Source: Schmidtea polychroa
Lineage: Eukaryota
Assembly: GCA_044892525.1 (NCBI GenBank)
Contig: CM097885.1
Span: 27,902,001-27,966,000, forward strand
DNA: 64,000 nucleotides
Reading direction: 5' to 3'
The translations under genes were made by a program, and so were the position numbers. This document shows positions 22,387 through 63,500 of the stretch, one piece after another. Each line of letters begins with the position of its first letter. Position 1 is the stretch's first letter. The notes under the pieces were generated by a model that did no database searches, was not told where the DNA came from, and was given only the letters and a program-made list of their open reading frames with translations.

Positions 22387-23089
22387 GAAGAATTTGTTAT
22401 TGGGTTTTGAGGCACTTTGTTTTCTCTGAATCAATTGTGAAATATTTAGTTTGTGTTGTTTATTTATGTTCTGTGTAACATTGTTTTGTTAATGGGTTAC
22501 ATTTATTGATTGAATGGTGATTTGTCCCCAAATATGCCGTGCTAGAAGTGCTGCCGAATCACTGGAAATTGATTTGAGATTTATTTTGAAATAAATATAT
22601 TTTATCTCATTTTTTGTAGGGATTCCCCGAATTACACATTATTTTATTCTGTCGAATACTTAATCACATACATGAAATTCCGTTAAATGTGAAGCTTCGG
22701 TCCAATAGAAATTTGCTTGGTATGGCCAGTAGTAGCAACAGTAACTCACAATTTGGGACCATCATTTACATTATAATTTTTAATTTAATGTCATTTCAAA
22801 TATTAAATGGTCAGAGTAGTGATTGTCTTGAAATTGAAATCATACAAAAGTGCAAAGACTTGAGCAATATTGGTTACTTTAATTAAAATTGTTGGATTTA
22901 ATTTTCCTGGTAATTTTATGAAATCAATGCCAATGGAATGTGTGAATAAACTAGATATTAAGTTTTATAGAGAATATATACTATAATATACTATAATATA
23001 TTATAATGGCGTAATATTTATTTATTTTTTATTTATTTATCAAAATTATGTAATATAAATTAATTATTGAAAATCATAGTATTGTCGAG

Positions 23090-23530
23090 GTTCGACGAGA
23101 CAGGCACAAAAGCAAGGCAAAAATCAATAAAAACATTAAATTTAAGTTAATAATTTTAATTACAAAAAAATCAAAAAAATTAAAAATGAATATTTTCCGG
23201 GGTAAACTGCTATGGGCGGATACCGAACATTGAAACGAGTTCAAATATAATAAAAATAAAGTCAATGGGGTCCCTAGAAGGAAAAAATTACAAAACACTA
23301 AACTTAATTAAAAAATTAATTAGCTAATAGAAAAATCAACCTAATGGAAAACCCATGCAATGTGCGAGGACCCAAGTAGTCAATCAAATTAGGTAAAGGC
23401 AATCGGATTAGCGGACGAGTAATTAAATTACGGAAAAATATCAAAAATGATTAAATTGCCAAAACCAATTATGTAGGTAAAAACCCCGGGAAAATTATCC
23501 AAAAGTAATTTGATAAGGAGATAATAAAAT
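23090..23530. repeat. Older dispersed repeat interrupted by giant LTR copy A (resumes after 28934); inverted homolog at ~37990-38500
   Basis: For example AATATTTTCCGGGGTAAACTGCTATGGGCGG (~23190) matches the reverse complement of CCGCCCATACCAGTTTGCCCCAGAAAATATT (~38387). Confidence 0.6.
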
Positions 23531-23924
23531 TGGTGGGTTACAGGTGGTCGAATGATTAAGTGCTGCTACCAGCGTAACCCAACATGCAACATTGTTTTTC
23601 CGCTTGGTACCCGTTGAGTGATCAACGTTGGTAATGTACCAAGGGTTGAGTACCCGCAAAAAGTGAGCGCATCAACGCACTATAATTGTCGAGTACTCCA
23701 CGGGTTCACGGACTACCGTTAGAAGGTTTGTGTCCGATTTCCTCAGGTCCCCTATTCGAAATTGTTTTCCCAACTCTCAACACCTCGATTTTCAGTCACT
23801 CAACGTTTGCAAACAACATACTTCATCCATTAATTTAACTAAATTTGTATTTCGACATTAGCATTAAACAACCAAAGAAAAAACTCAATATATCTAGCAC
23901 AGGTGACTGTTCACATCGCGGGAA

Positions 23925-24313
23925 TTACATTGGTGTAGGTTTTTCTTGTCGCTCATACTCGGCTAACCTAGCCTTCTTTAACTTCTCCCGGATGTTCCGT
24001 CCTAACCGCTTTCTTTTGGGTTTCTCTTTCGCGGCCGGAGGGTATATTGCTGCTAGTTCCACAGTCAACGGCCGGATTTGGCTTATGGCGGCTCCGTGAA
24101 CTACTTGTTCATTTCGCTCGGTTTCTAACGCGCGGAGCTGGAGCTTCAGTTGAAGGACCTGCGCCACCTTCTTTTTCATATCCTCGGGACTAAACCAGGT
24201 GCTTTCTAGTTCCCGGCACCGTCCCTTGAGCTTGTCTACTCGTATGCGGAGCTCCTCGGCCTGTTTTTGGGCTTCTTCCCTGTCCTTTCGCAAATTTTCA
24301 AGTAGTTTGAACA
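23925..24313 (-). CDS. LTR ORF2 exon (copy A): coiled-coil protein with basic NLS-like tail
   Basis: LLENLRKDREEAQKQAEELR..LQLRALETE..IRPLTVELAAIYPP..KPKRKRLGRNIREKLKK. Conserved in B and C; begins at a conserved phase-1 splice acceptor. Confidence 0.7.
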
Positions 24314-24530
24314 CTAGATAAAAATTCAATGATTCATTCTTGCAGCATAACGCTCATCCCATTATATAATAAGATCAATATTATAAATAAACATAGTTTC
24401 AGATATTAAGCACGCAATTCATAAGATAATTTATTGAAAGGAATAAAATAATTCGTCACTAAAATTAAAGTTTAATTAAGTCGTAACTGATGATAATTGC
24501 AAAAAGAAATTTGACGATGAGTCAGGTCGG

Positions 24531-24887
24531 TCACTTGCGAGGCCTTCCCCTCTTCCGCGGGGTTATCTCGGCCTCTTCTAGGTCCTCTACGGTTTTCCCT
24601 TCCTTGTTTGCCCGGATTTGTAAGTCGATTTTCCTCAATCGCATCTGGGCTGCTTCTACCTCGATGGCCGCTCGGTCGCGGGCCTCTTGCAAAAAATCGT
24701 TTGTGGGCTCTGTTTTTACCCACACTGGGGCGTCCGGTTCCGGCCCACTCCTGATTACTGGGCCCCAGTTGTCGAGGTCCAAGCCCCGGTTCCAATCATG
24801 GATACGGTACCATATGTACCGTGTCCGGAGTCGTGTAAGCATCTGTCGGTCGGCTTCTTCGTTACTACCACTGTCAGAATAGGACAT
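24531..24887 (-). CDS. LTR ORF1 (copy A): 118-aa protein with C-terminal AT-hook
   Basis: TRLRTRYIWYRIHDWNRGLDLD, VKTEP (SUMO consensus) and PRKRGRPRK (AT-hook). The ATG sits 2 nt after a TTTGTAG acceptor. Confidence 0.75.
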   Translation of the reverse strand: MSYSDSGSNEEADRQMLTRLRTRYIWYRIHDWNRGLDLDNWGPVIRSGPEPDAPVWVKTEPTNDFLQEARDRAAIEVEAAQMRLRKIDLQIRANKEGKTVEDLEEAEITPRKRGRPRK

Positions 24888-25175
24888 TTCTACAAAAGAA
24901 CAATCAAGCCACTTTATACTGGTTGTAATACGACGTTAAACACAGGATTTTGTTGACCCTTTTTCCCTTTAAGAATTTGAAAATAAAAAGAAATATTTTA
25001 TTTTAAGACTAACATTTATAATCCTAGGAACAATAGAACGAAATTTCATATTTTGTCTACTAATAACCAAAAAAAAAATTTATCCACAATCCTCTTGTTT
25101 TAATTAGCTATTTTTCTCTAAATTTGTATTTATCACTAAGTGATCATTTAAATTATATTTTATGTATTTTAATTT

Positions 25176-25691
25176 AAATATTATAACGAATTAGAAATTT
25201 CAGGGTTTAAATCTTTTGCCACTAAATTCGGGTACGCTGAGGCGACAGGTATTAACAACGAGCTTAGCTTCTCGTCTGCTTGCCTTTCCTTCGGTTGTAC
25301 TCGTCATGAGTGGTATAGTCCGCTTTGATTTGCTTGTAAGTAGTTTAATTTTTTAACCATAGTTTTTCGATTTTAGAGATATTTGGTGGGAATCTTTCAC
25401 TCGGATGGTCATACAGAGTCATATAAAATTCCATTAAGGCTTTGAACAACCGGTCATTCCATCCGAGTGAAAGATTCCCACCAAATATCTCTAAAATCGA
25501 AAAACTATGGTTAAAAAATTAAACTACTTACAAGCAAATCAAAGCGGACTATACCACTCATGACGAGTACAACCGAAGGAAAGGCAAGCAGACGAGAAGC
25601 TAAGCTCGTTGTTAATACCTGTCGCCTCAGCGTACCCGAATTTAGTGGCAAAAGATTTAAACCCTGAAATTTCTAATTCGTTATAATATTT
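25176..25691. repeat. Near-perfect inverted repeat, ~233-bp arms with a 50-bp spacer
   Basis: 25176-25408 is the reverse complement of 25459-25691. Confidence 0.9.
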
Positions 25692-26346
25692 GATTTGTAT
25701 TTAGTGGTGTTAGAAGTTTTGTTGAATAATTTTAATTTAGCCTGTTCTTTGGCTAATCGCTTTTGATTTTTGTAAAATAAATTTTTGTCAGTTATCGATA
25801 ATTCATGCGACTGATTCCGTGTAGTTCCACGGTTGGTATCGACTGTCCCAATGTATTCCTAGTCCTCAATGAATTGATTTAGGTTAATGGAGGTTTTACC
25901 TGACTTTTAATTTCTGGGGCCGCTAAGTTAACTAAGATATATTCGTCACTGATGAGCCTGGGTTAAATTAACTTATTAGATACGTATAGTTACCTACATT
26001 TACACATGTCTATATATGCGCACCTACCCATGTTATTATTGTATTAATAGTCCTAGCATTTTCTCCGAGGGGGGGTTACTAAAAATAGATTTCTGGAATT
26101 ATGGTCATTTTTATTGGAGTAAAGGGGTAGGTTCTAAATTTAGTCGTGGGGGAAATCCTAAATCGATAATTCAATCAAATTTTGATTTTTGGAAATTAAT
26201 AATGAAATAATAGTAATAACAATAATGGTGATAATCATAATGTTGATAAGAATAACACTAGGAAGAATGATCATAGCAATAATTATGATAATAATAAAAA
26301 TGATAATAATAATAATAATAAATAAATCGTAATAATAATAATAATG

Positions 26347-26436
<90 letters not shown>

Positions 26437-31512: not shown

Positions 31513-41100
<9,588 letters not shown>

Positions 41101-45861: not shown

Positions 45862-46517
45862 ATAGTTTCTGAAAGTTTCCTTAACTTTCTTTAGTATTAA
45901 AATTTTAATTTAAAATGACCAAATAATTGCTGTTTTTCTTTGAAGAAAAACTAAACAGCTTCGATTGAAATTGAAATTTTAAAGTATCATTATATATTTC
46001 TTTGCAAAGGATTTTTTTGTCTTGTTTTATTTTATACAAACCTAGCAATCATTAAGATCTTATAAATCAGTAGCCTACTAGTGAATGAGACATAAATTGC
46101 ATCTCGTTGACAATAACAAAGTAGGGGGGGGATTGCAGGTAATCAACATTATACCCTTTCGTGCTGTTTCCAGCGCAAGCCAGAATAAAATTACTCGTTA
46201 CCACTCAACACATGCTGAAGGAACAACGTTGCTAATGTGCCGAATGGGGGAATACTTGCGAAAAGTCAGCGCGCTAAGAGCACTATAATTGTCGAGTACT
46301 CTTTGGGTTCACGGACGGCCGTTAGAAGGCATGTGTCCGATTTACTTCGGTCCCTTATCGAAATTACTCTCCCAAACACTCTTATATCAACCACATTGTT
46401 CTCAACAATCACAAGATTCAACCGCATACACATCAGATGGTGGTAATTATTTATTTAGTCATCACAATTTTACAATATATGTTTTACTCCAGGAGGGTTC
46501 GCACACTCAATCACACC

Positions 46518-46956
46518 TCAGGATCGTGGAGCTGCCTCGGACTCTTTCAGCTTTTCCTGTTCGGCCAGCCAGGCCCTTTTAAATTTCTCTCGGGTATTCC
46601 GCCCTAGCCGTTTGCGTTTCGGCTTGCTTGCTTGGGCCGGTGGATATATCTTGGCCAGCTCCACGGGTAATGGGCGAATCTGCGCTTGGAGAGTGTCCTG
46701 AATGAACCTTTCGTTCAGTTTGACCTCGAGCGTGCGCACTTGTAACTTCAGTGCCCGTATTTCCAGTTGATCCTGCTCCGCCTGGGTCTGGAGCTGCAAG
46801 ATGTGTGCTGTTCGTTTCTTCATCTCGACCGGCTGAACCAAGTGCCCTCGAGTTCTCGGCACTTCACTTTGAGTTTCACGACTCGGCCTCGGAGCTCTTC
46901 GGCCTGGGTTTGGGCCTGTTCCCGATCTTTGCGTAGATTTTCAAATATTTTAAACA
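46518..46956 (-). pseudogene. LTR ORF2, copy B (1-bp frameshift near 46832)
   Basis: VFKIFENLRKDREQAQTQAEELR../..EMKKRTAHILQLQ..IRPLPVELAKIYPP..KPKRKRLGRNTREKFKR. Confidence 0.7.
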
Positions 46957-47224
46957 CTAAAACATAAGAAATTTATTTACCGCATCCATACAAAAGAAAA
47001 TTCATTTAATCATGTAACAAAATTATCAATTAGCGTCGGTCGCCTGACCACCAAGGTATACTATAGGTGCTAAAACACATAACTTGACAATAAAATAATT
47101 TATTAAATGAAGTACATAAGAGTAATTGTAGTTAACTAAGTTATCGTACGGGATGCAAAAGAAAACTGTTTAGGACGAGTCAATTATCATTTATCACAAT
47201 ATGAGAGTACGGATCGACGAGGAT

Positions 47225-47590
47225 TCACGTTGGGCACTTGCGGGGCCTTCCTCTCTTCCGTGGGGTTGCTTCGACATCTTCCAACTCCTCCAAGGACACT
47301 CCTTCCCTTTTGGCCCGGAGCTGGAGCTCGATTTTCTTTAGCCGCATCTGGGCAGCCTCCACTTCGATGGCCGCTCGATCAGGGGCCTCCTGTAGTATAT
47401 CGTTCCTGGGTTTCGTTTTCACACACGCCGAGGCGTCAGGTTCTGGGCCACTTCGGATAACTGGGCCGAAGTTATCCAGATCCAACCCGCGGTTCCAATC
47501 ATGAATGCGGTACCAGGTGTACCGGGTACGGAGCCGGGTGATTATCTCCCTGTCGGCTTCGCCATCGCTGTAGTCGTCAGAGTGAGACAT
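47225..47590 (-). CDS. LTR ORF1, copy B (AT-hook protein)
   Basis: TRLRTRYTWYRIHDWNRGLDLDNFGPVIRSGPEPDA..PRKRGRPRK; ATG follows a TTGTAG acceptor. Confidence 0.75.
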   Translation of the reverse strand: MSHSDDYSDGEADREIITRLRTRYTWYRIHDWNRGLDLDNFGPVIRSGPEPDASACVKTKPRNDILQEAPDRAAIEVEAAQMRLKKIELQLRAKREGVSLEELEDVEATPRKRGRPRKCPT

Positions 47591-50500
47591 TTCTACAATA
47601 CAAAAGTCAGAACACTTTACACAGACTGAGATGAGTCTTTAAACACTGGTTTTTGTTAACCCTCCCCCCGACCTACTAACTCACGCTGCCATCGTTTGAC
47701 ACTACGAACTCTAAAATAACCGACGAAAACATTGACGAGCGGACGAAAGCAGGGGTAGTATTATGACATGAAGTTTATGAAATTTATCGAATAAAAGGAT
47801 GATAAGACGTACGGAGACAGGCATCAGTCACGGAGTTCTTCATTCCAACTTTTCATTCTAAATTAACTATTTCTTAGGTTTGTAATTTAGTTGACGAATT
47901 TAATGGAGTAATATAACTAGTGAAATAACTATAACTTAGAATTTCGAATTTAAGTTTTCTTATTTTATCCTTTTAATAAAAAAAAATAATTTCGGTTAAC
48001 CCTAATTATTAATATAATGAATCCTTATCTGATAATGTCCTAAAAATTTTCGAAAGGTCATTTTTGTTTAAAATAACTATTTTAAATTTAATATTTTTAT
48101 TTACCACTAGATGGCAATTTAAAATTTAGCATACTAAATTTTTATAAATTTTTTGAAAATCGGTAAATTACCATTAAATTCGGGTGGTACGTCGGGGCGA
48201 TGGATATTAGTGGCGAACTTAGTTTCTCGTTTGCTTACCCCTCCCTTGGTGGTACTCGTCATGAGTGGTACAATCTCCTTTTACGAGTTTGGAGGTAATT
48301 TATTTATTGTCAATAAATTTTCATTTTTAGGTACGTTACATGAGAAATTTTACTTGAACGGAGATGGATGGTTTTGACCTTACTAATCGTTTCCTTTTGT
48401 GATTCGTGGCGACTTCCCGCTTGCAATTTATTAATAATAAAATTTGGTGATTCCTTGCAACAATACTTTTATATTTTAGGTAAAGTGTACTTTCATAATT
48501 TATTAGTAATTTGTAAAGTTGTTTTATATGTTTCAATAATATGTATTAATTGGTTCTACACTTCCCTGGCAATCTAAGTAAACGTGATTACTCTTTTCAA
48601 GTTTCTTAAAGCGAATGTTATCTGGCTCCTAGTTTCAGGGGGTTGAGATAGCTAAGCTATCCCTTACTGTTAAGCTTGGCCAAATCAAATTATTATATGG
48701 GTATAGCAACTTACATTTACACATATACCTATATGTGTACATCTGCCTATATTCCTAATTAAAATTAGTAGCCCTAACATTTTCTCCTGGGGGTGTTACT
48801 AAAAATATATTTTAGGAATTATGATCATTCTTATTGGAGCAAAGGGGGTTGATGCTAAATTTAGTTGTGGGGGGAAATCCTAAATCGATATTTTGATCCA
48901 ATTTTGATTTTTGGTAGGTACTAATATAACAATAGTAATAATAATAATAATACTGATAATGATAATGACAATAATAATCATGATAATAACAATAAGGATA
49001 ATAATAACAACAACACTAATTATAATAATAATAGTAATAATAATAATAATAATAAATATAATGATAATCATAATATGAATTATATTTAATTTATATGCAT
49101 TTATAATTTATAATTTGACAAAATTTTATGTTCCAAATTCTTGGCATAGGATCGTATGTCTAAATGTAAACTATTATAGCTATTTATACTTATGTTTTTA
49201 TAGTCGTAATTGATTATAGCTAGTTATAATTTATTTTCTACATTTATAATTTATATTTACAACTATTTATAATTATATTTTATAATAAAAATTTATATAT
49301 AACTATTTGTAATTTATAGTTTTATAGTCAAATTTTGTATGCAACTACTTGTAATAAGATTCTATTCCACAATTCGGACATACTAGGCATTTATAAACTA
49401 GATATTTAAGTACAGTAGGAAATCATGATTATAAAATTACATATTCGAGTAAAATATAAAACGATAACCTATAATTCAAGTATCTATAAATTTCATAGTT
49501 AGATTGAGATATTTATACATTATATATAAAATTATGGTTTTTAATTTAGATCTTCCTAACTAATATACTTAAGCAAAGGATATAATTATAGTTTACAGTT
49601 TAGTCATTTGGGAAGTAGATATTAAGTAAAGCATAAAGTCATAAGGTATGATTATATATATTTATAAATTATGATTTTAACTTGGAATTTGATAGTACTC
49701 TACGATTTGACATTGATAGATTATAATTCCAGATTTAAAATTGATTATATTTTAGGATTATATGTTTATGAGCTGTACTTATTCAACTTAATAAAGAATT
49801 ATATGTAATCAAAAATTACATTTTTAACTTGCCAATACTTTATAGATGGTCATTTATCAATGAAAAATAGTTAGAAATTATACTACCTCAACTTGATGAC
49901 CAGAGTACATTTATCTACAACCGTTTTAGATTTATAATTGATATTTTGGAAATTAATGTGGATTCACAATTTGTAAAACTATTTTAGGGTGAAAATTTAG
50001 CTCGATATAGGTTCATGATTTATATTTGGAGGAGGTTAAATTTATGATATATATATATATATATATATACAGATTAGATTTATTAGTCATATAATTAATT
50101 CAATGGCCACTCAATTTATAGATTAAGTCCTACCTATACGTATGCCGAATATCTTTATGAGTATAATTTCAGTTACTTCAATCACAAAGAAAATTTTGCT
50201 TTACATTGTTACAGAAATCTACATTCGGCAAACGTATAAGTATGACTGAAATTTTTAATGATGTTCAACCGACTACATTACTAAATTGTCAGATTGTGTT
50301 AAGTTTGGGTCTGAGATCTACTCAAATTATGACCTTAGTGTGAAGCTATTGTAGAGAATTTTGAATGATGATTTTAACTATGTATTGCACATAAAATTGG
50401 GAAGAGCGTTTGCTTTCGCGGCCCCACTGTGACCACTAAGACAAGCCTTACTGTTGTGTTGGGTCGAAACCTACCGTGGTCGACCGATGATAAATAATTA

Positions 50501-50934
50501 AAGTCATAACGGAGGAATTTTATCGACACAACTCCAAGGCAGAACCATTGAAGTGGACGACCTCCGATGACCGAACAAAAAAAACTATAATATAGATAGT
50601 GCGTGTCTGCATGTGAAATGACTATAGTTATTTAAAATGTGGTTGAGGTAAATTTTATGAATGATCGAATGTAGGACTGATCAGAGACGTAGGTGTATCA
50701 ATACGCCGCTGATCATTCGTACATAAGATAAAAACACCAAATAAACAATATTAATTAAGAGAAACATGACTGAAAATAAAAACAGTGAAATTAAATAAAA
50801 TCCAACAAATGCAAGAAGTATTGCAAGAAAATCAACTCAAACATAACAGAGAAACATAAAAATATAAAAACAGACTTGAATAAAGTTAAAAGATAGTAGA
50901 AATGCTAAATTATATAAAAAACTTTACCGTTACT

Positions 50935-51711
50935 GAATAATTTTACCGTTCATTTTATATGGTTCACCTTCACAATCGCCATTTGCTTTCATAACTCCCT
51001 TTACAATTATTGTTTCTCGTATTCTATGGTTCAATTTTGCCTTTAAACGAATTTCTGGACTTATTTTTAATTCTCCTGTTTGAAATGCTGCTAGACAGTT
51101 TCTGGAAGCACCTCGACTGGCCTAGGTATCGCATGCATTTTTATGAGTGACGTATGGCTTCATTTACCACAATAGAATACAAATGTTGTATGTTTGACAA
51201 TACACTCTCTCACTTGAGTTCATCGCAAATCAGACTCTTGATACAGACAGTATTTTACGTCATTTTCTATTTTTAAACTGCTCGGATACGCACCTGGACA
51301 TTCCAACATATCTACTACCGAATAAAGTTTTCCCATTTCAATTTGGGAACAATCGTACGTAACTAAAGATGATGTCTGTGTAATTATTGCACAATACGTA
51401 ATCATCATAAACATCGCCCATGGAAATATCATAGTTTTTCTTAGTTCTGGCCTAACTCTTTCATTTACTCGTCTTTGTGGTGGACTCATTTCTTGCTTCT
51501 CATTTTTCTTTTCTGTTAGCGATGAACACAGTGTTTTCCAACCACCTTTTTCGTTTAACAAGCTTATTAAATATTCGTTTACTAGACGGGCAGCGATGTC
51601 TATCAAATTTTCTAATTTGTCTGACCTTGCGAACGTATGCGTTCCAATTTCTAAAACAACATAAGTTAAAGCTATTATTATAACTTCCTTATTAATTTCA
51701 TTTTTTGTCAA
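50935..51711 (-). pseudogene. Bcl-2-like domain fused to a chuvirus/BEL-type envelope glycoprotein N-terminus
   Basis: BH2-like LLNEKGGWKTL, a hydrophobic signal-like segment, then LVTYDC..YSVVDMLECP..LYQ. Past two stops and one frameshift it continues ECIVK..FYCGK*SHTS..CLAAFQTG..KG..NGDCEG..Y, a cysteine pattern typical of that glycoprotein class. Confidence 0.7.
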
Positions 51712-51779
<68 letters not shown>

Positions 51780-52228: not shown

Positions 52229-52634
52229 TATTTTTAGTAATTTTTATTATTATCTATGTATTATTATTATTATAACTATTGGTGGGTTACAGGTGGTCAG
52301 ACATCTTACCCTTTCGTGCTGTTTCCAGCGTAACCCAGAATACAAGGTTGATTCTGCCAAATGACACTTGATGAGCGATCATCATTGGTAATGTGTCAAC
52401 TGGGTGAGTCCTCGCAAAAAGTGAGCGCACTACTTGCACTATAATTGTCGAGTATTCTTTGGGTCCATGGACTATCGATAGAAGATTTGTGTCCGATTTC
52501 ATTGGTCCCTTGCCTCTATTGTTTTCCCAAAAACCCACTCCTCATCACTCAACTTCATCATTCAACACGCGAGATTTCAACATCAAAAGTTTGCAATTTT
52601 ATTTTACCATCAATTTGGTTCTGTCCATCAACCA

Positions 52635-53068
52635 TCAAGTGGTTTTAACTTTAACTGCTTCTGATTCCAGCCCTTCTTCGGCTAGCAGCAGGCGTTTAAT
52701 TCGCTCACGACCATCTCGGCCTAACCGCTTTCGTTTGGCTTTGGGCTTGGGTGGATGCATTTCGGCCCATTCGGTAGCCATAGGTCGGATGGCTGCCGTG
52801 ACATGTTCGTCAATAGTCTGTTGATTCAATTTGGTCTCCATGGCTCGCATCTGTAGTTTCAGGGCTCGTATCTCGGTTTTGTCTTGGGCGCTCTGGAGCT
52901 GCAGATGCTCAATCTGCTTCAAGTATTTATGCGCCACTTCGGAGAGAAACCAAGTTTGTTCCATGTTCCGGCAACGTTCTTTGAACTTGTTGACACTGGA
53001 CCCGAGTCGCTCGACCTGCTGGTGCGCCTGCTCCCTGTCTTTCCGGAGACCTTCGAATAGCTTATACT
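52635..53068 (-). CDS. LTR ORF2 exon, copy C
   Basis: YKLFEGLRKDREQAHQQVERL..EIRALKLQMRAMETKLN..IRPMATEWAEMHPPKPKAKRKRLGRDGRERIKR, open from the TTTTAG acceptor. Confidence 0.7.
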
Positions 53069-53242
53069 CTAAAACGAAACTATCATTAAATGACTTTTAC
53101 CATATATTGTTTCGCTATTGTTTGTAGGCGTCTCTGAGATAAAAACTTTTATATCCATATCCGAGATACTAAGCACCATATGGGAGCGGTTTAACCTTAG
53201 GGTTCAACTGTAAGAATATAATTTTAAAACAAAGTCATTTAT

Positions 53243-53695
53243 TTAATAATACAGCAGTCGGAGTTCATCAAAATCACTATAATCAACGGAGTATAAGCCC
53301 AAGTCCACTGAGATAGTCGGGGTTTTAGCTTCAGGGGGCCTTCTTGCGGGGTCGGTCCCATTTTTCTCGGGCTTCGGCTCAACTTCCGACTCTTCAATGG
53401 GTCGGCCGGCTTTGACGGCACGGAAATGAGCCTCAATCAAGCGGAGCTCATATTGCGCTCTGGTGATGGCACCCATGGTACGATCTCGGGCCTCTACGAG
53501 CCAATTGTTATCCGGCTCGGTCTTCACCCACGCCGGGGCCCTAGCCTCGGGGCCTTTCCGGATTACTCGATTCGAGCAGTCCAGGTCCCGACCCTGGCTC
53601 CATCGATGGATGTGGTGCCAGATAAGTCTGGAGTGGAGGCGCGTAGTCGTCGCGTCGCATCGGTCTTCCTCACTCTGCTCACTGGAATTCGACAT
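53243..53695 (-). CDS. LTR ORF1, copy C (AT-hook region shifted out of frame)
   Basis: TRLHSRLIWHHIHRWSQGRDLD..VIRKGPE..WVKTEPDNNWLVEARDR. The DRPRKK remnant lies in another frame. Confidence 0.65.
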   Translation of the reverse strand: MSNSSEQSEEDRCDATTTRLHSRLIWHHIHRWSQGRDLDCSNRVIRKGPEARAPAWVKTEPDNNWLVEARDRTMGAITRAQYELRLIEAHFRAVKAGRPIEESEVEPKPEKNGTDPARRPPEAKTPTISVDLGLYSVDYSDFDELRLLYY

Positions 53696-54325
53696 TCTAA
53701 ATTTTTATTAGAGATTACGGTTCTTTTAATTAATATATCACGTTGATTTCCATTTTCGCTCATTATATTCTCATTATTAGTTTTCTTTTCTTTCTACTTA
53801 AAGGGGTTCAGTTATGAAGAACTTTTAAATCGTAAATAATTTTAAAGGGAACATAATGTAACTGTATTACAATTGTATGGTACATAAATATTGACGACAA
53901 ATCAATGATGGAATGCGTATTTTGTAAACAAAGCCTACCGAAATTAAAATACCAAAGCTTAGTTAAATTGAGAATTTAAATCATAAAGTAAATGGTATGC
54001 TAAAATGGTGATAAATATAGAAGAAAGATCATTAAATAATAACTGAAGTCCTTGGTTTTCGAAAAACAAATCTATCGAATTAAAATTATGTACGTTTTAA
54101 AATTTTTAATTTTGTCTGTTTTTGAGTGGAAAAATATTTTTTGATAAAACATTAAAAAGTTTTTTCGAAAATTACTGTTGTTTCCCATCCGTTTTCTTCC
54201 TCCTTATAAGTGACTATTGTTGCACGTGTCGGAAAACAATTAATCGGTGAGAAAGATTTTCTTGTCTTTGATGACTCAATAAATTTTTATTCAAGTAGGA
54301 GAAGAGAAATTATTTTTACCCAATA

Positions 54326-56156: not shown

Positions 56157-58135
56157 TATTGATGTTATCGTTCGTTGTTTAATGCATTTTGATTAATTCA
56201 AATTCTCAATTCTAATATTCAATTTGTTTTTAAACTTTTGTCAAGTTTGGTATTATGGACTCCAATCAACCGAATTCATCAGAGAATCACTCGACAATCG
56301 GATCTTTTAACGGCACATTTAGATCTACCGATTACACTCCTATGTTGAAACAGGAATTCATAAATCGAGATGGAAATTATATATTTCATGATTCCAGGAA
56401 AAATACAATCCTTTAAAAAAATCTTCTACTATTTGCAATGTATATTCATGTGTATTTTGCCCTTTTACACTTTGCTGCTCACTCTATAGATGCGTGATCT
56501 TCCTTAAGTTATGCAGGTAATCGAATCGGCGATAACAGAAGCTGTGCAAAAAGAAATTCATGCAGTTCAAAGTTAGCCTTTTCAGTGATCGTAATAGGAT
56601 TTCCTTTATTAATTGGAATATGTAACATAATGGAATTTTGTGGTTAGCGTAGATATATATTTGCAATTGACTTTATGAACGCTTTGGAAGCTCATTCTCA
56701 GGTTTAACGGTAAATAAATAAAAGTCTAGTGATTTTTGTATTAATAAATTTTTGTTACAGTTAATAACTGGTGCGTACAAATTTCTTAATGCAATTGCGT
56801 TTATCATCAAATCATTACAGCGGTAGTTCCAGTTAACCGATGGGTTTAATTTTTGAGCATTACTGATATTTTCACATTTTATTTTAATACCAATAATTTG
56901 TGGGTGTACACTTGAAGTAACCAAAATTAATGAGATTGTAAGTTATTGAATTAGATTTCTATGAGTTCATTTTTATGGTTTATTTTTAGCTTTTATACTT
57001 ATAAATTTACGAGTATTACATGTAGAAATAGTAGGTCCATTAATAACCATTTAGGTTCTAGGTTTAAGTTTACAAGTAGTAACTAAATAAATAATGCATT
57101 CATCGTAAGGAGTATATATATAAATAATACGTTTATTAATAATGATAGCCGATTTATAGGTTTATAAGTAGTATATATAAGTGATATTAATACGAATATT
57201 GGTATATGGAATTTTATGGGGCTTAATTTATAAAATCAATGTTATGAGCAATATATATATATATATATATATACAGATATATCAGTAGTCTATCTGGGAG
57301 TAAAGTTGGATAGATATATAATTTGAAGGGGGTCATTTAGGAAATTTGCACTCTATAGTTGTAACTATGATATAAATGGAGTATATATTAAGCTAATCTA
57401 GTATACTTGGTTAATGGCTAATGACTATGATTTTAAGGGGGTTCATTCATAAAAATTTACAATTTAACATTTTTTAAATATAGCATAAGATAAATATATA
57501 TTAAAATAGGCTAACTTAGAATATTTAGGTTGTAGTTGATGACTATATGATTTATGGGGGGAAGGTTTATAGAATATTTACACCTTATTATGAGATTATA
57601 TTTTTTCCGCTAAAGTAGTTTAGATTTTTACTGTTATGACCAAATTAAGCTTATAATTTATACTCTTACAGCTAATACAAGTTTATAATTTAAAATTTTA
57701 TGAAATTAAATTTATAGTTTATAATTTTAAAACTAATATAATTTTATAATTTATATTTTTATGAAGTTAAGTTAAATTTATAGTTCATATTTAAGGCTAA
57801 TATAATTTTATAATTTATATTTTTATGAAGTTAAGATTATAATTTATAGTCAATATAAATTTATATTTTTAGGAAGTTAAATTTATAATTTACACTTTTA
57901 TAACTAATTATAATTTATATCTTTATGCGATTAGGATTATAATTTATACTTTTATAATTAACTTAGATTTATAATTTTTAGTCAATATAAATTTGTAATT
58001 TATATACTTTTTTACAAATTTAAATTTATAATTTGTACCTTTATAGTTATGGAAAGTTGTTTGTTTTAATAATATTGGATTTAGCTTTTTCTGGAAAATA
58101 TATTTTAATTGCATTATTATTGATTTATTGATTTT

Positions 58136-59383
58136 ATGAATTTAGAAGTTGAAGACATCATAACTGGCGACCACGCCAAGGAAATCAATGCGATAGGAAA
58201 AAAGAAAGGAACTAAGAATATGTTAGATTCCTTGTCAAAACAAGCACGTGAGATGCTAAATTTTAATGTAAGAAAGTTTGACGGAAAAGTTGGATCTGAA
58301 GCCGAACTTTGGCTAAAGGATATTATGGAATGGCTGAGAATAGAAGGTCAAAGTCTAGTAGACGCATTGGATCTTTTGTTGGCAAATGCGGCATCGATGT
58401 TATGGGAAGCGGCGAAAATAGCGAAGGTGACCGATGAAATGGCAAAAGAGTGGTTTATAGAAACTTTTACAGTAAGGAAAACCATTACTAACAAGATTGC
58501 GGAACTAGCTCAAATTCAGCAAGAGAGAGATGAAAGATTCCAAGTCTTCGAAATACGAGTAAGAAGTTTAGTTAAAAGTGTATTTAGCTCTGGAATGTCT
58601 GATGAACAGATTGTTCGAGACATTATTTCAAACAGAGTGAAAGACGATAGAGTAAAAGAAATATTCTTATCAGGGAAAGTGACAAGTTTTGAAGATGCCA
58701 GGGATATGGCAAAAATTCAGGAGAAGATCGAGATGACGAATGACAATAAATTCAATATTGATGCCATAAGAAGAGACTCTTACGCATCAGTGATGAAAAA
58801 TGGTAAATTCGAGGGTAGACGAAACCAAAGAACAATTGTGAAGACAACTGCACATCAACGCGACGAACAACGAGAGATTAATCATGAGAGGAATAGACCT
58901 GGTAATGGTCGGTTTGTACCAATTGTAAATGAAGACAAGAATGAAAATGAGCGGTATAGAGGACGATATGAGACAGGAGAACCAGAGAGAAGAATACCTA
59001 CAGTATCGCTTAAAGATATTGCAAGAAGGTTATTTAATGACAGCAAGGGAAGAGATTCGCGTCATCCAGTGAAACTGACACCAGGTCAGTGTTTTTGTTG
59101 TGGAGAAAAAGGGCACCGGCGTTTTGAATGTCCTATGAAAGACAAATGTCTAATCTGTGGAAAAGAAGGTCATGGATTCAGAGATTGTTTTTTGGTTAAA
59201 AATAGAAATGGATATCAGAAGAGAGTGGCATGTATTTACGAAGAAGATCACGAAAGAAATAATGGTGATTTCACAGAAGATTTATACAGTAATTACGAAG
59301 AAACGATAAAAAAATCAATGGATAAACTAAAAAACAAGGACGATCCAATTGCTTTCATTTCGTCAGTGGGGTCGACACAATAA
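58136..59383 (+). CDS. gag: Gag with two CCHC zinc knuckles
   Basis: KFDG..AELWL, CFCCGEKGHRRFEC and CLICGKEGHGFRDC. The true start is probably downstream of the LTR. Confidence 0.88.
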   Translation: MNLEVEDIITGDHAKEINAIGKKKGTKNMLDSLSKQAREMLNFNVRKFDGKVGSEAELWLKDIMEWLRIEGQSLVDALDLLLANAASMLWEAAKIAKVTDEMAKEWFIETFTVRKTITNKIAELAQIQQERDERFQVFEIRVRSLVKSVFSSGMSDEQIVRDIISNRVKDDRVKEIFLSGKVTSFEDARDMAKIQEKIEMTNDNKFNIDAIRRDSYASVMKNGKFEGRRNQRTIVKTTAHQRDEQREINHERNRPGNGRFVPIVNEDKNENERYRGRYETGEPERRIPTVSLKDIARRLFNDSKGRDSRHPVKLTPGQCFCCGEKGHRRFECPMKDKCLICGKEGHGFRDCFLVKNRNGYQKRVACIYEEDHERNNGDFTEDLYSNYEETIKKSMDKLKNKDDPIAFISSVGSTQ

Positions 59384-60570
59384 TCAGTAGAAAGAAGCGA
59401 AATGAAGACATGATGCAGAAGATGTATGAGACGACAGACAGAAGAAAGTGGAGTAAGATTGTAATAAACATGACGGCGATTGACATGCTTTGGGACTCTG
59501 GAGCGTCAGTATCTGTTATGAGTGAAAAAAGTTGGACAAAGATCGGGAAACCGAGGTTGAAGCAGAGCACAATTTCTCTTTGTGGACTATTTTCGACGGG
59601 AATGGAAAGACCGTTAGGAGCAATGACGATAGAAGCTGATTGGAATGGGAAAAAAAGAATTATTAATGTTATAGTTGTCAAAGATATACGTCCAGATTTC
59701 ATTGGGGTGTAGATACAATGGAGAGATTTGGTATTCAACTGGTAGAGGTAGACAATATTGAAGCGTCACAAGTAGGGTTGACATATGTGGACTCAGAACG
59801 AGTAGAGAAAGCATTATTAATGCTTGGAGACAGGAAGAATGAACAGTTAGACATATTGCTACGGAAGTTCAAAGGTATTTTTATGGCTTCAACTTTTGAT
59901 CTCGGGTTTACGAAAGTTGTTCAACATGAAATGAATATAGTAGGTGGGCCTGTAATGTTACAGCCAAGAAGACAACCAATGCATTTAGAACAAAAGCTTG
60001 ACGAACTTGTCACGAACTTATTAGAAGCGAGAGTTATTAGAAAATGCAAAAGTGCATGGAACGCGCCACTAGTGATTGTGGCTAAGAAATATGGATCAAT
60101 AAGGATGTGTGTCGACTATAGAGGGTTGAATGCGATCACTGAAAAGATATATTTTCCAATGCCAGATACACGATTTCTACTGGATTGTCTGGCAGATTCA
60201 AAATATTTCACATTCATCGATCTAGGTCAAGCATATTATCAAGTTGGAATGGCGAAGGAAATTCAAGAGGTCACGGCTTTCAGTACAAGAAAGTACATTT
60301 GAGATACATAGATTGGTAAGAGAGAACAGTGAGAAAGCAGCTAAACGAATGAAAGAGATGGAAACAGAGAAGAGAACGAATCGATGTTTCACGGTGGGGG
60401 AGAAAGTATTAGTTCGGAAAGAACCACAAAATCGCGACAAAGATGGACTACAGTATGAAGGTCCTTTTGTCATATCAAAGTTTTTGTCAGAACACCAGGT
60501 GGAATTGAGTAACGGGACGACAAAGAAACTCAGACGAATTGAATGGCTTAAGAGATGGGCAGTTCCTTAA
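59329..60570 (+). pseudogene. pol: Truncated pol (protease, partial RT, integrase tail)
   Basis: The -1 frame is open from the slippery site to the protease. There is a 1-bp loss near 59705 and a large deletion near 60295 removing YxDD, RNase H and the integrase core. Confidence 0.85.
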
Positions 60571-63500
60571 AGAAGGGGAGAGTTATGGAAAGTTGTTTGT
60601 TTTAATAATATTGGATTTAGCGTTTTTTGGAAAATATATTTTAATTGCATTATTATTGATTTTATGAATTTAGAAGTTGAAGACATCATAACTTTTATAA
60701 CTACTTGTAATTTATATTCTTATGAAATTATGATCATAATCTATAATTTTGTAATTAACTCAGATTTATAACTTATAATTTTACAGTCAATATAAATTTG
60801 TAATTTATATTTTTCAAAAAATTAAATTTATAATTTATGCTTTTATAACCAATTATAATTTATATTTTTAAGAAAGTAAATCTATAAGTATAATTCATAT
60901 TTTTATGGAATTGAGATGATAATTTATACTTTTAGGGGTTTATGATTTGTATTTTTATAGTTAGTTTAGAGCCTATTTAAGATCCAAGTCTAGCCGATAC
61001 GCACGTTGAACACCTTTATGAATACTATCGCTGCTAAATCAATCATTAAAAGAAGGAATTTTTACTTTACACTATTACTAGAAATTTTACTTAGGACATT
61101 TTATCCATCTAGATTCGACGAACGTATAGGTAAAGTTGATTCTTGATGATATTCAGCCGACTACATAAGTTGTGAATTGTGATTAATTTGAGTCTGGAGC
61201 TTTACTCCGTTTACCATACCTAGGGTAATGTATCAATGTTGATTTTTAGTGTGTACGTTATGTGTATATTGTGCATGAGAAAAGTCGATTTACAGAAAAT
61301 TGCTTGCTTTCGTGGCCCCACTGTGCTCACTACGACAAGCTCTAATGTGAATGTACCCGGTAATATACTACCGTACTATAATATTGATAACGAGTTCCAA
61401 GAACTCCGCCGTCCCAGAGGTGATTTATCGACGAACCCAGTGGCCTATACCACTGGGTCGGTACGACCTCCGACGACCCCGAAATATAATATGAAGGTGC
61501 GTGCCAGGCAGTGGCCTGCATACATCAAGGCTGTGTGCACAGTGACGTTATAGTTGTTGATGAAAATTGGATGCAAGACGGATCAAAATCGACGGCCAGT
61601 TCGTTCGATGTTGATCCCTCTTGTATTATTTAAAAAGAAATGCATTTAACATATGATAATTATATTAATAATAATAAACGTAACGCAAATAATCTTCCTT
61701 ACTTTTATCAGGATCTCGAAAAATTTTCGTACAGAACAAATATTTTTGGCATAAAGATTACTTTTGTGACTAAAATGCGTTGGTATATATACCTATTTTT
61801 GTGCGTGCAAGTACACTTGTATGTATTGATGCATTAAAACAAATTCGAATTCTTTTTATTCTAGAATTTTCTATCTCTAATTTTGGTATTTTTTAATGAC
61901 AATTTTAGTGCCATAATTTTTATTTTTAAATTTTTATTTTCTAATTATTTTTTGTTAAATTTACCTCCATGATGGATTTGGAACGGTTCCAGAACATTCC
62001 ATATTAATTTTAAATTAATTTTTATTTTAATGATGTTTTCCTTATTTTCTTTTTCCCAAATTTTTATTTTAATAACTAATTTATTTATTTTGATGACTTT
62101 TATTGCTCTATGTGGCTTTTATGATGGTTATCGCCATTCCTATGAAATGTTCTGGGATTTTCTAGAATTTTTCAATGTTTTATCATCTTTCTAAGCTATT
62201 CGAGTCTGTTTTTTGTAATTTTGTGTTTCTTTGCTATTTTTTGAGTTAGTTTCTTGCACTACTTCTTGCATTGATATCATTTTATTTAATTTCTTTGTTT
62301 ATATTTTTGTTGTTTTTCCTCTTAATTAATATTGTTTATTTGGTGTATTTTTTTATATTTAACTGAACTTATTGCTATTTGCGTGCTAAATATCTACGTA
62401 CCTTAGTCAAAAATCAGAGTTTTGGGTCTAGAAATCAGTTCTAGTCCAACACTATCATCCTAGTCTCTATACGGCTAATGCAATTTCTCTCTAAGCGAGC
62501 CCAAACCCAAAAATTAGTATAAATAAAAATAATATGCAATCACACTTTATTGTTAAATCAGATTTTTTATAACTTTTATTTTTTCGAGTTTTAAGTAAAT
62601 TTTTGGAATGTGAGGCAATCCGTGACATAAAAATCCTTTATATTTTATATAACATGTTCCTGTTAGGGGTTACATTGCTGGTAAAAATATTTAGTCTTAA
62701 TATGGAATTCGAGTAGCATTATCACCATGATCATTCCCCCGTTTGACCTATACCTAAGCCGTTTTTCAAATTCAAATTTAATAGTTAATTGATACTTCTT
62801 TAATTTCGCATTCTTCGGCATTCCGTTTTCAATATAACCATTTTTTGATTGTTTCCAAGATTATTATTTTTTAAGATAAACTAATTTACCAAGCCCAAGA
62901 TCTCAATAAGAATTAAATTACCTTTTATTTATAATTTTTATAACTATGATTTATTTTTCAACATCACCTTTCAAAAAATGTAAATATAAATAACTAATTA
63001 TAATTACTTATCTCTCTCCTGAGGTCTACTTACTTATTAACTATAAATACGTATAATCCTATAATCTCATAAATTACAATGTTCAAAGCACCAAGCGTGC
63101 CTCTCCTTTAATTTCTAGATGCAACGGATCACATAGCAGCATCACATATGGAAACAACTCAACTTCAACTATCTGTAAATATCTTAACAATCAACATACC
63201 CGTCTAGCAATCAGAATCAAATGGCCGGATATCCACGTTTAAAATCAAAATTTCTTACCAATATACCTAATCTGCCCTACCGAATGGGTCTCTTCTTCAG
63301 ATACCACACAACCGGATGTCTATATCTGGAGTCTTTCGTTTTATTTTATTTCCTGATTGTTTGTATTGTATAAGCATGTGTATTTGTAGGGATATGTTGT
63401 GCCCGTTTAGTTGCATTTGACTTAATAAGGCATAAGTATCTGATACTTCTGTATATTATACTTTTTAACATTTCATACTACTCCTTCATACTACTCCTTA

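Follow-up and report, generated by a model that had tools for sequence, protein, structure and literature searches.

The window analysed here, a stretch of 64,000 nucleotides from Schmidtea polychroa, raises the question of what kind of element joins a Bcl-2-like domain in frame to a viral-type envelope glycoprotein, and whether the Bcl-2-like part is a module in its own right. The first-pass annotation described the two as a fusion linked to a giant LTR, with the env signal peptide as a possible tail anchor for the Bcl-2-like part. We find that the segment at 50930-51715 is a dead, orphan piece of a Burro-type Ty3/Gypsy LTR retrotransposon, from a family that is young and present in high copy number. 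The explanation that we favor as a whole, with a probability of roughly 0.7, is a fragment of a Burro-type element in which the env signal would set the topology and the Bcl-2-like domain would be selected, ER-anchored cargo.

The window fragment and the intact 17.2-kb family

The feature is carried by the minus strand, the plus strand at 50935-51711 being closed, with stops throughout. The frame from 51714 (minus) is free of stops to 51223 and includes a BH1-like helix, a BH2-like GGW, a basic linker, a hydrophobic stretch, and a YDC motif; the remaining cysteine pattern is readable in this copy only across the TGA codons at 51220-51222 and 51160-51162 and a one-base frameshift near 51080-51120. 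The component parts are:

50930..51715, minus strand: 787-bp piece from the interior of a 17.2-kb Burro-like Ty3/Gypsy element; isolated, and the sole internal piece of the 17.2-kb family in the window
51517..51714, minus strand: Bcl-2-like domain, C-terminal half (end of a4 to a8, with BH1- and BH2-like parts); a1-a4 lost at the (TA)n
51433..51516, minus strand: polar/basic linker, doubling as n-region of the internal signal peptide; its length differs between families, and its pLDDT is low (model residues 131-158)
51367..51432, minus strand: hydrophobic h-region and polar c-region of the env internal signal peptide, assigned from hydropathy and n/h/c layout, with a putative cleavage site; candidate anchor of the upstream product
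50933..51366, minus strand: env (Monjiviricetes-type fusion glycoprotein), N-terminal ~145 codons, with two TGA codons and one frameshift; ends at about 50930
51715..51777, no strand: (TA)n microsatellite where the fragment is broken on its 5' side, seen in the sequence

The two TGA codons and the one-base frameshift, all in the env part, show that this copy is decayed, and its 5' side is cut by the microsatellite, both as originally annotated. The joined frame is nonetheless real, with kin genome-wide, and the env part, with X at the stops, matches PF24664 at E 2e-11, above the cut-off (Pfam; E 5e-4 for the frameshifted piece). The Bcl-2 half of the window copy has private substitutions, departs from the motif W-x4-GGW at one position, and when searched alone gives no Pfam Bcl-2 match, because only a5-a8 (about half of the domain) remain. 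The fragment is 95.9–96.8% identical to the other copies, with the same boundaries in 29 of 29, and a comparison of the window with eight 10-kb stretches around two intact copies gives 50930-51715 as the only internal match (96.3–96.6%). LTR-related sequence in the window is limited to two ~280-bp matches (76–79%) at 23083-23354 and 38247-38508, which resemble one LTR end and are probably remnants of the LTR of a sister family. Contigs of three runs guessed to be RNA and of one unlabelled run span the fragment wholly or in part, and these give no evidence on expression or splicing.

Elsewhere in the window there is a separate, internally deleted Gypsy element (58045-60693) with ~120-bp direct repeats (92%), gag, protease, and partial RT genes, an intronless Ser/Thr kinase frame of 282 aa (32025-32873; Pkinase E 3e-28), and a set of frameshifted minus-strand frames (34935-37401) that we take to resemble a hAT transposase.

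A search of the same genome with the 164-aa open part of the window copy yielded 2067 candidates, the best 150 of which (a biased sample) were scored. All 150 are 91–100% identical at the amino acid level and 147 have no stop across the Bcl-2/linker/signal/env junction; in intact copies the two domains lie in one frame. Frames of at least 3400 codons are present in 23 of the 150, and 16 of those have exactly 3437 codons. Two intact copies are 17,190 and 17,244 bp long and are flanked by ~850-bp repeats that are 99.4–99.9% alike. Paired direct-repeat LTRs (99.3–100% alike) are present in eight of ten copies tested, and in two of the ten the partner LTR is absent from the predicted 3' stretch. 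TG..CA LTR ends, a purine tract, and 4-bp target duplications can be read in four copies, and a candidate primer-binding site beside the 5' LTR (L125-L140 inner flanks) resembles a tRNA-Trp 3' end. The near-identical LTRs and open frames indicate that the family is young, with the window holding a single scrap of it.

The Pfam order in the intact 3437-codon frame is Retrotrans_gag (CA), CCHC knuckles, ubiquitin-like, Bcl-2, PF24664, protease, RT, RNase H, and integrase, followed by a second signal peptide, a glycosylation-rich ectodomain, and TM2. The ubiquitin-like match is weak in the 17.2-kb family (E 0.016) and stronger in a sister family (E 1e-4). Gag followed by PR-RT-RH-IN, together with the TG..CA LTRs and the 4-bp target duplication, places the family in Ty3/Gypsy on the basis of domain order and LTR ends. 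The fusion of Bcl-2-like domain and env is thus real and in frame, but it is not a two-domain protein, as it lies inside a Gag-...-Pol polyprotein. The post-integrase region is located at L031:1252-2400 (minus), at L152:1-2340, and in L159, as well as in the proteins P0019 and P0020, and a second frame downstream of the polyprotein (L031:1-834, L034:9344-10000 minus, and L152:2201-4366) has a weak match to an RNase T/DEDD exonuclease (E 0.09).

The ~3-kb repeats A (23529-26373) and B (46127-49084) of the window are about 74% alike, with a third partial copy at 52278-53700. The repeat is abundant, with 6499 candidates in the same genome, and contains two short minus-strand frames, one coiled-coil-rich and one with an AT-hook-like end, with no convincing Pfam family. 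The distance from the fragment to repeat B is about 1.8 kb, and to the third partial copy at 52278 it is 0.5 kb. The reported adjacency to copy B is real, but membership in an element with such giant LTRs is refuted, the intact copies being tied to an unrelated LTR family of ~850 bp that shares nothing with repeat B. The reading of A and B as the LTRs of the Bcl-2/env element has adjacency in its favor and can be practically discarded, as ~850-bp LTRs bound the intact copies, A and B are just about 74% alike, none of six repeat B loci match element stretches, and none of ten 9.9-kb stretches flanking five other B copies contain a Bcl-2 or env part.

The Bcl-2-like domain and its relatives

The intact 17.2-kb copies match the whole of the PF00452 model weakly (positions 1-100, excised region, E 2-3e-4), with scores of 21.6–22.3 bits that are below the gathering cut-off of 31.4. 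Sister families with the same junction were gathered via PF00452 and PF24664 searches; four sister sequences score 19.4–29.7 bits, and the relative P0002 reaches 31.4. For a profile of eight element domains compared with the PDB, each of the 60 matches listed is a chain of Bcl-2 or Bcl-xL (E 1e-4 to 1e-3). Compared with 1.84 billion proteins, the profile gives ten matches, of which five have Bcl-2-like, signal, and env parts, two are short Bcl-2-like pieces, two are cellular Bcl-2s (P0005 and P0008), and one (P0009) looks spurious; P0002 and P0010 cannot be judged for env, as that part is absent from them. A phmmer search of the PDB with one domain gives only matches at E>=0.2, yet all 60 listed belong to the Bcl-2 family, and a word-based search among long proteins with the Bcl-2 region found none in 1091 candidates.

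A structure model built from an alignment of 13 element-type sequences has a pLDDT of 69.5, with domain blocks of 68–90, although three of the five models are much lower, and a single-sequence model gave a pLDDT of 39. The model has a helical bundle around a central hydrophobic a5, as in Bcl-2 proteins. In VIA-align, ranks 1–35 are all Bcl-2-fold chains, with the first unrelated chain at Z 5.7; the best match is Hydra Bcl-2-4 (6wgz; Z 15.0, rmsd 2.6 Å, 129 residues aligned), and the top matches (Z 13–15) are canonical cellular pro-survival and Bak-type proteins. Foldseek returns the same kind of matches, with a best E of 4.5e-3 and none at E<=0.001. We regard the Bcl-2 fold of the upstream domain, originally suggested by its motifs, as confirmed by the predicted structure and the profile matches.

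The BH2 motif W-x4-GGW is invariant in the eight-row alignment of element domains, and both it and the fold are kept among sequences that are just 16–55% identical. The BH1 motif NWGR is present in none of the 13 rows of the element-domain alignment, and in the 17.2-kb family Val replaces the usual Arg; cellular-type Bcl-2 frames of the same genome keep NWGR or a close variant. Among the latter is a cluster of seven near-identical canonical Bcl-2-type frames with NWGR (L039-L045; C4, about 89.9–90.8 Mb). A further group of PF00452 matches near the cut-off (L054-L068 and others) has one TAG inside the match and frames of 170–186 codons, and is possibly a spliced or read-through multi-copy Bcl-2-like gene.

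Pairwise dN/dS of the Bcl-2-like domain is 0.28, 0.34, 0.12, and 0.17 in four of six pairs, dS being saturated in the other two (usable loci 27/29, 23/30, and 5/8). In the same comparison env is under tighter constraint than the Bcl-2-like domain (0.05–0.09 for the five pairs that are closer), and constraint on the linker is weak. We conclude that purifying selection maintains the Bcl-2-like domain as a module.

The Bcl-2/signal/env junction is common to four other families in the same genome and to P0001, P0003, P0004, P0006, P0007, and P0011. The long relatives P0017-P0020 share the gag-env-pol order, and all four keep the signal peptide while lacking a Bcl-2 domain, indicating that the signal exists for env regardless. 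In an unrooted env tree of 14 rows the ten Bcl-2-bearing rows do not form one clade (three changes, p-AU 0.0009), which points to repeated loss or shuffling of the module; the tree fits either a single gain with losses or module shuffling. We also note that P0018, P0019, P0020, P0003, and P0017 carry retropepsin-like domains in two or three copies, of which one follows the integrase.

Proposed membrane topology and possible roles of the domain

The env of an intact copy matches PF24664 with 284.8 bits (E 1e-84), above the cut-off, and includes a signal peptide and a C-terminal TM; together with the match of the window copy, this bears out its assignment as a chuvirus/mononegavirus-type glycoprotein. 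By sequence it has no solved relative, with seven weak centrin-type or other matches. In the intact copy the hydrophobic segment before env has a Kyte-Doolittle 19-mer value of 1.99, and TM1, after env, has 2.19. Hydropathy gives four membrane-type segments besides helix a5. They lie before and after env, after the integrase, and at the C-terminus; the part between the third and the fourth (after signal 2) has 11 N-glycosylation sequons. This arrangement of a second signal, a sequon-rich ectodomain, and a TM recurs in sister families, in a 30-kb element, and in P0019/P0020. The post-integrase ectodomain has fibronectin-III-type look-alikes (0.85–0.90), which are a lead only.

The signal-like segment noted in the window between the Bcl-2-like domain and env is a consistent feature, with a tripartite n/h/c layout in all ten divergent sequences compared, in which an h-region is followed by a polar c-region that ends near YDC. 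The n-region is net positive in seven of the ten, and the GGW-to-YDC distance varies from 48 to 76 aa across families.

With Gag first in the frame, an internal signal is needed for env to reach the lumen. Gag would start in the cytosol, the hydrophobic stretch after the Bcl-2 domain would act as an internal signal threading env into the ER lumen, TM1 would return Pol to the cytosol, and the signal 2/TM2 pair would do likewise for a second type I membrane protein; with an even number of membrane segments Pol would stay cytosolic. On the order and hydropathy of these segments, an internal-signal topology of this kind (signal 1/TM1, then signal 2/TM2, with Pol cytosolic) is very probable.

A signal-peptidase cut near YDC would leave the signal as a C-terminal membrane anchor of the Gag-UBL-Bcl-2 part, from which the element protease could then free an ER-anchored Bcl-2-like protein; we put the chances of this reuse of the signal peptide at about even. 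In every Bcl-2-bearing element seen the domain directly precedes the signal, which lies at the site expected for a native tail anchor. A hydrophobic segment follows the domain in ten of ten sequences, but it is the signal of env. Mitochondrial tail anchors typically have a basic flank, and the c-region here is without one. As to function, the Bcl-2-like domain could be a selected host-modulating cargo that damps death or stress signalling in the expressing cell, with a groove that would be non-canonical because NWGR is gone, a role whose odds we place slightly under one half.

A less probable but serious alternative is that the signal serves env only, and that a cut by the protease or by signal peptide peptidase frees a soluble Bcl-2-fold domain that blocks signalling without binding BH3, like poxviral A52, B14, and N1. 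The variable and weakly constrained linker, the retention of the signal without Bcl-2 in all four long relatives, and the loss of NWGR are all consistent with this, and such poxviral proteins are among the fold matches at Z 6–8; the best fold matches are however the canonical pro-survival and Bak-type proteins, the domain is directly before the signal in every Bcl-2-bearing element seen, and no conserved protease-like motif is apparent by eye in the linker in a 13-row alignment, which is not a formal test.

It is unlikely that the domain is structural or pro-death, either as a matrix-like tether of Gag to the env membrane or through a Bak/Bok-like permeabilization that aids release. Its covalent link to Gag and to the signal of env would suit such a role, the group of tied fold matches includes Bak (Z 13.8) and Bok (Z 13.0), and its language-model neighbors are the BCL2L15 and BID clusters (0.91, weak recognition), but relatives with the same gag-env-pol layout manage without the domain, and the B-IAP cargo of the related Burro1 is reported to be protective. 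That the Bcl-2-like stretch is a neutral passenger, open merely because Pol lies downstream in frame, is very improbable: Pol does force an open frame, the domain evolves faster than env, and some lineages are without it, but dN/dS of 0.12–0.34 across saturating synonymous divergence largely refutes this, and the fold and W-x4-GGW are kept in spite of the low identity.

The ER-anchored, host-modulating reading can be extended, tentatively and with considerable doubt, to a clade of flatworm-type Gypsy elements whose four-pass polyprotein would yield an enveloped particle bearing a mononegavirus-type fusogen and, from the region after the integrase, a fibronectin-III-like type I protein as its two surface glycoproteins, and whose env signal, once cleaved, would serve as the tail anchor of an ER-resident, NWGR-less Bcl-2-like regulator. 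If this is true, these elements would have a second means of sustaining host stem cells, one that does not depend on BIR.

Comparison with known systems

The pairing of BCL2 with an in-frame env in the polyprotein of a planarian Gypsy element has already been published for Burro. The planarian Burro / GYPSM1 giant gypsy-like LTR elements are described as encoding one polyprotein with Gag, ubiquitin-like, BCL2-like, env, and PR-RT-RH-IN parts (PMC6431247, citing Grohme 2018 and Jurka 2007), and the same source matches the Burro env to mononegavirus-type fusion glycoproteins, presenting it as the first case of an in-frame env located between gag and pol. Its Burro section, in the available text, includes no signal peptides, anchors, four-segment topology, or post-integrase membrane protein. 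It is the only source found, with passages citing it, to combine Burro and Bcl, and the accessible parts of PMC8532177 and PMC11410931 add nothing further on these domains. With the headline in print and the window copy dead, the locus itself matters little. What is added is structural and selection support for the Bcl-2-like domain as a maintained module, a concrete four-segment topology that would account for the position of env between gag and pol, and a compact family without BIR, where the Bcl-2 cargo can be studied apart from the IAP cargo of Burro1.

The 17.2-kb family, set against Burro-1 to -4 by published description only, shares with Burro the in-frame env between gag and pol, after ubiquitin-like and BCL2-like domains. 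It differs in size, at 17.2 kb with ~850-bp LTRs and 3437 codons compared with over 30 kb and 4873–5140 aa, and the Burro cargo domains BIR, MATH, and ankyrin have no match in its long and second frames (Pfam; 3' frames <165 aa were outside the scan). A 30-kb Burro-type copy in the same genome has the same Bcl-2/signal/YDC junction, with env 37–38% and Pol 42–55% identical to the 17.2-kb family, and includes ankyrin repeats and a RING-MATH frame. Burro1 B-IAP (BIR+RING, a caspase inhibitor; Dev Cell 2026) is reported, in the available part of PMC13465017, to protect stem cells and to be functionally tested. Both Burro1 and the 17.2-kb family are thus planarian Gypsy elements with an apoptosis-related module, which is BIR+RING as described for Burro1 in that text and a Bcl-2 fold without BIR here. 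A BIR+RING frame of 392–393 codons was seen just after a TRAF/MATH frame (L099-L104), with at least 150 scored matches, as a Burro1-type B-IAP cargo in a separate frame.

The mosquito BEL/Pao elements named Anakin, which have a captured chuvirus glycoprotein (PMC7642597), share a retrotransposon-captured Monjiviricetes-type env, but they are Pao elements, and the portion of that source available describes no Bcl-2 domain or gag-env-pol fusion. The viral Bcl-2 homologues KsBcl-2, BHRF1, A179L, M11L, and ORFV125 have the same fold as the element domain (Z 6.6–13.1), but in large DNA viruses they are stand-alone genes with their own tail anchors. ORFV125 has a divergent yet functional BH1, SPGR (PMC7719400, in part), which keeps the Gly-Arg, whereas the 17.2-kb family is without that Arg.

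We found nothing in the literature on a signal peptide serving as a tail anchor in this way, and the primary Burro papers or their supplements may describe the signals or the family. If the anchor model is true, it would be an unusual reuse of a signal peptide and would bear on the control of death by retroelements in planarian stem cells. Its closest parallels are the capsid anchor of hepaciviruses and flaviviruses and the foamy-virus Env leader, where the envelope signal peptide remains behind and anchors, or pairs with, the structural protein upstream of it; the sequences are unrelated to the element signal, and the likeness is one of analogy only.
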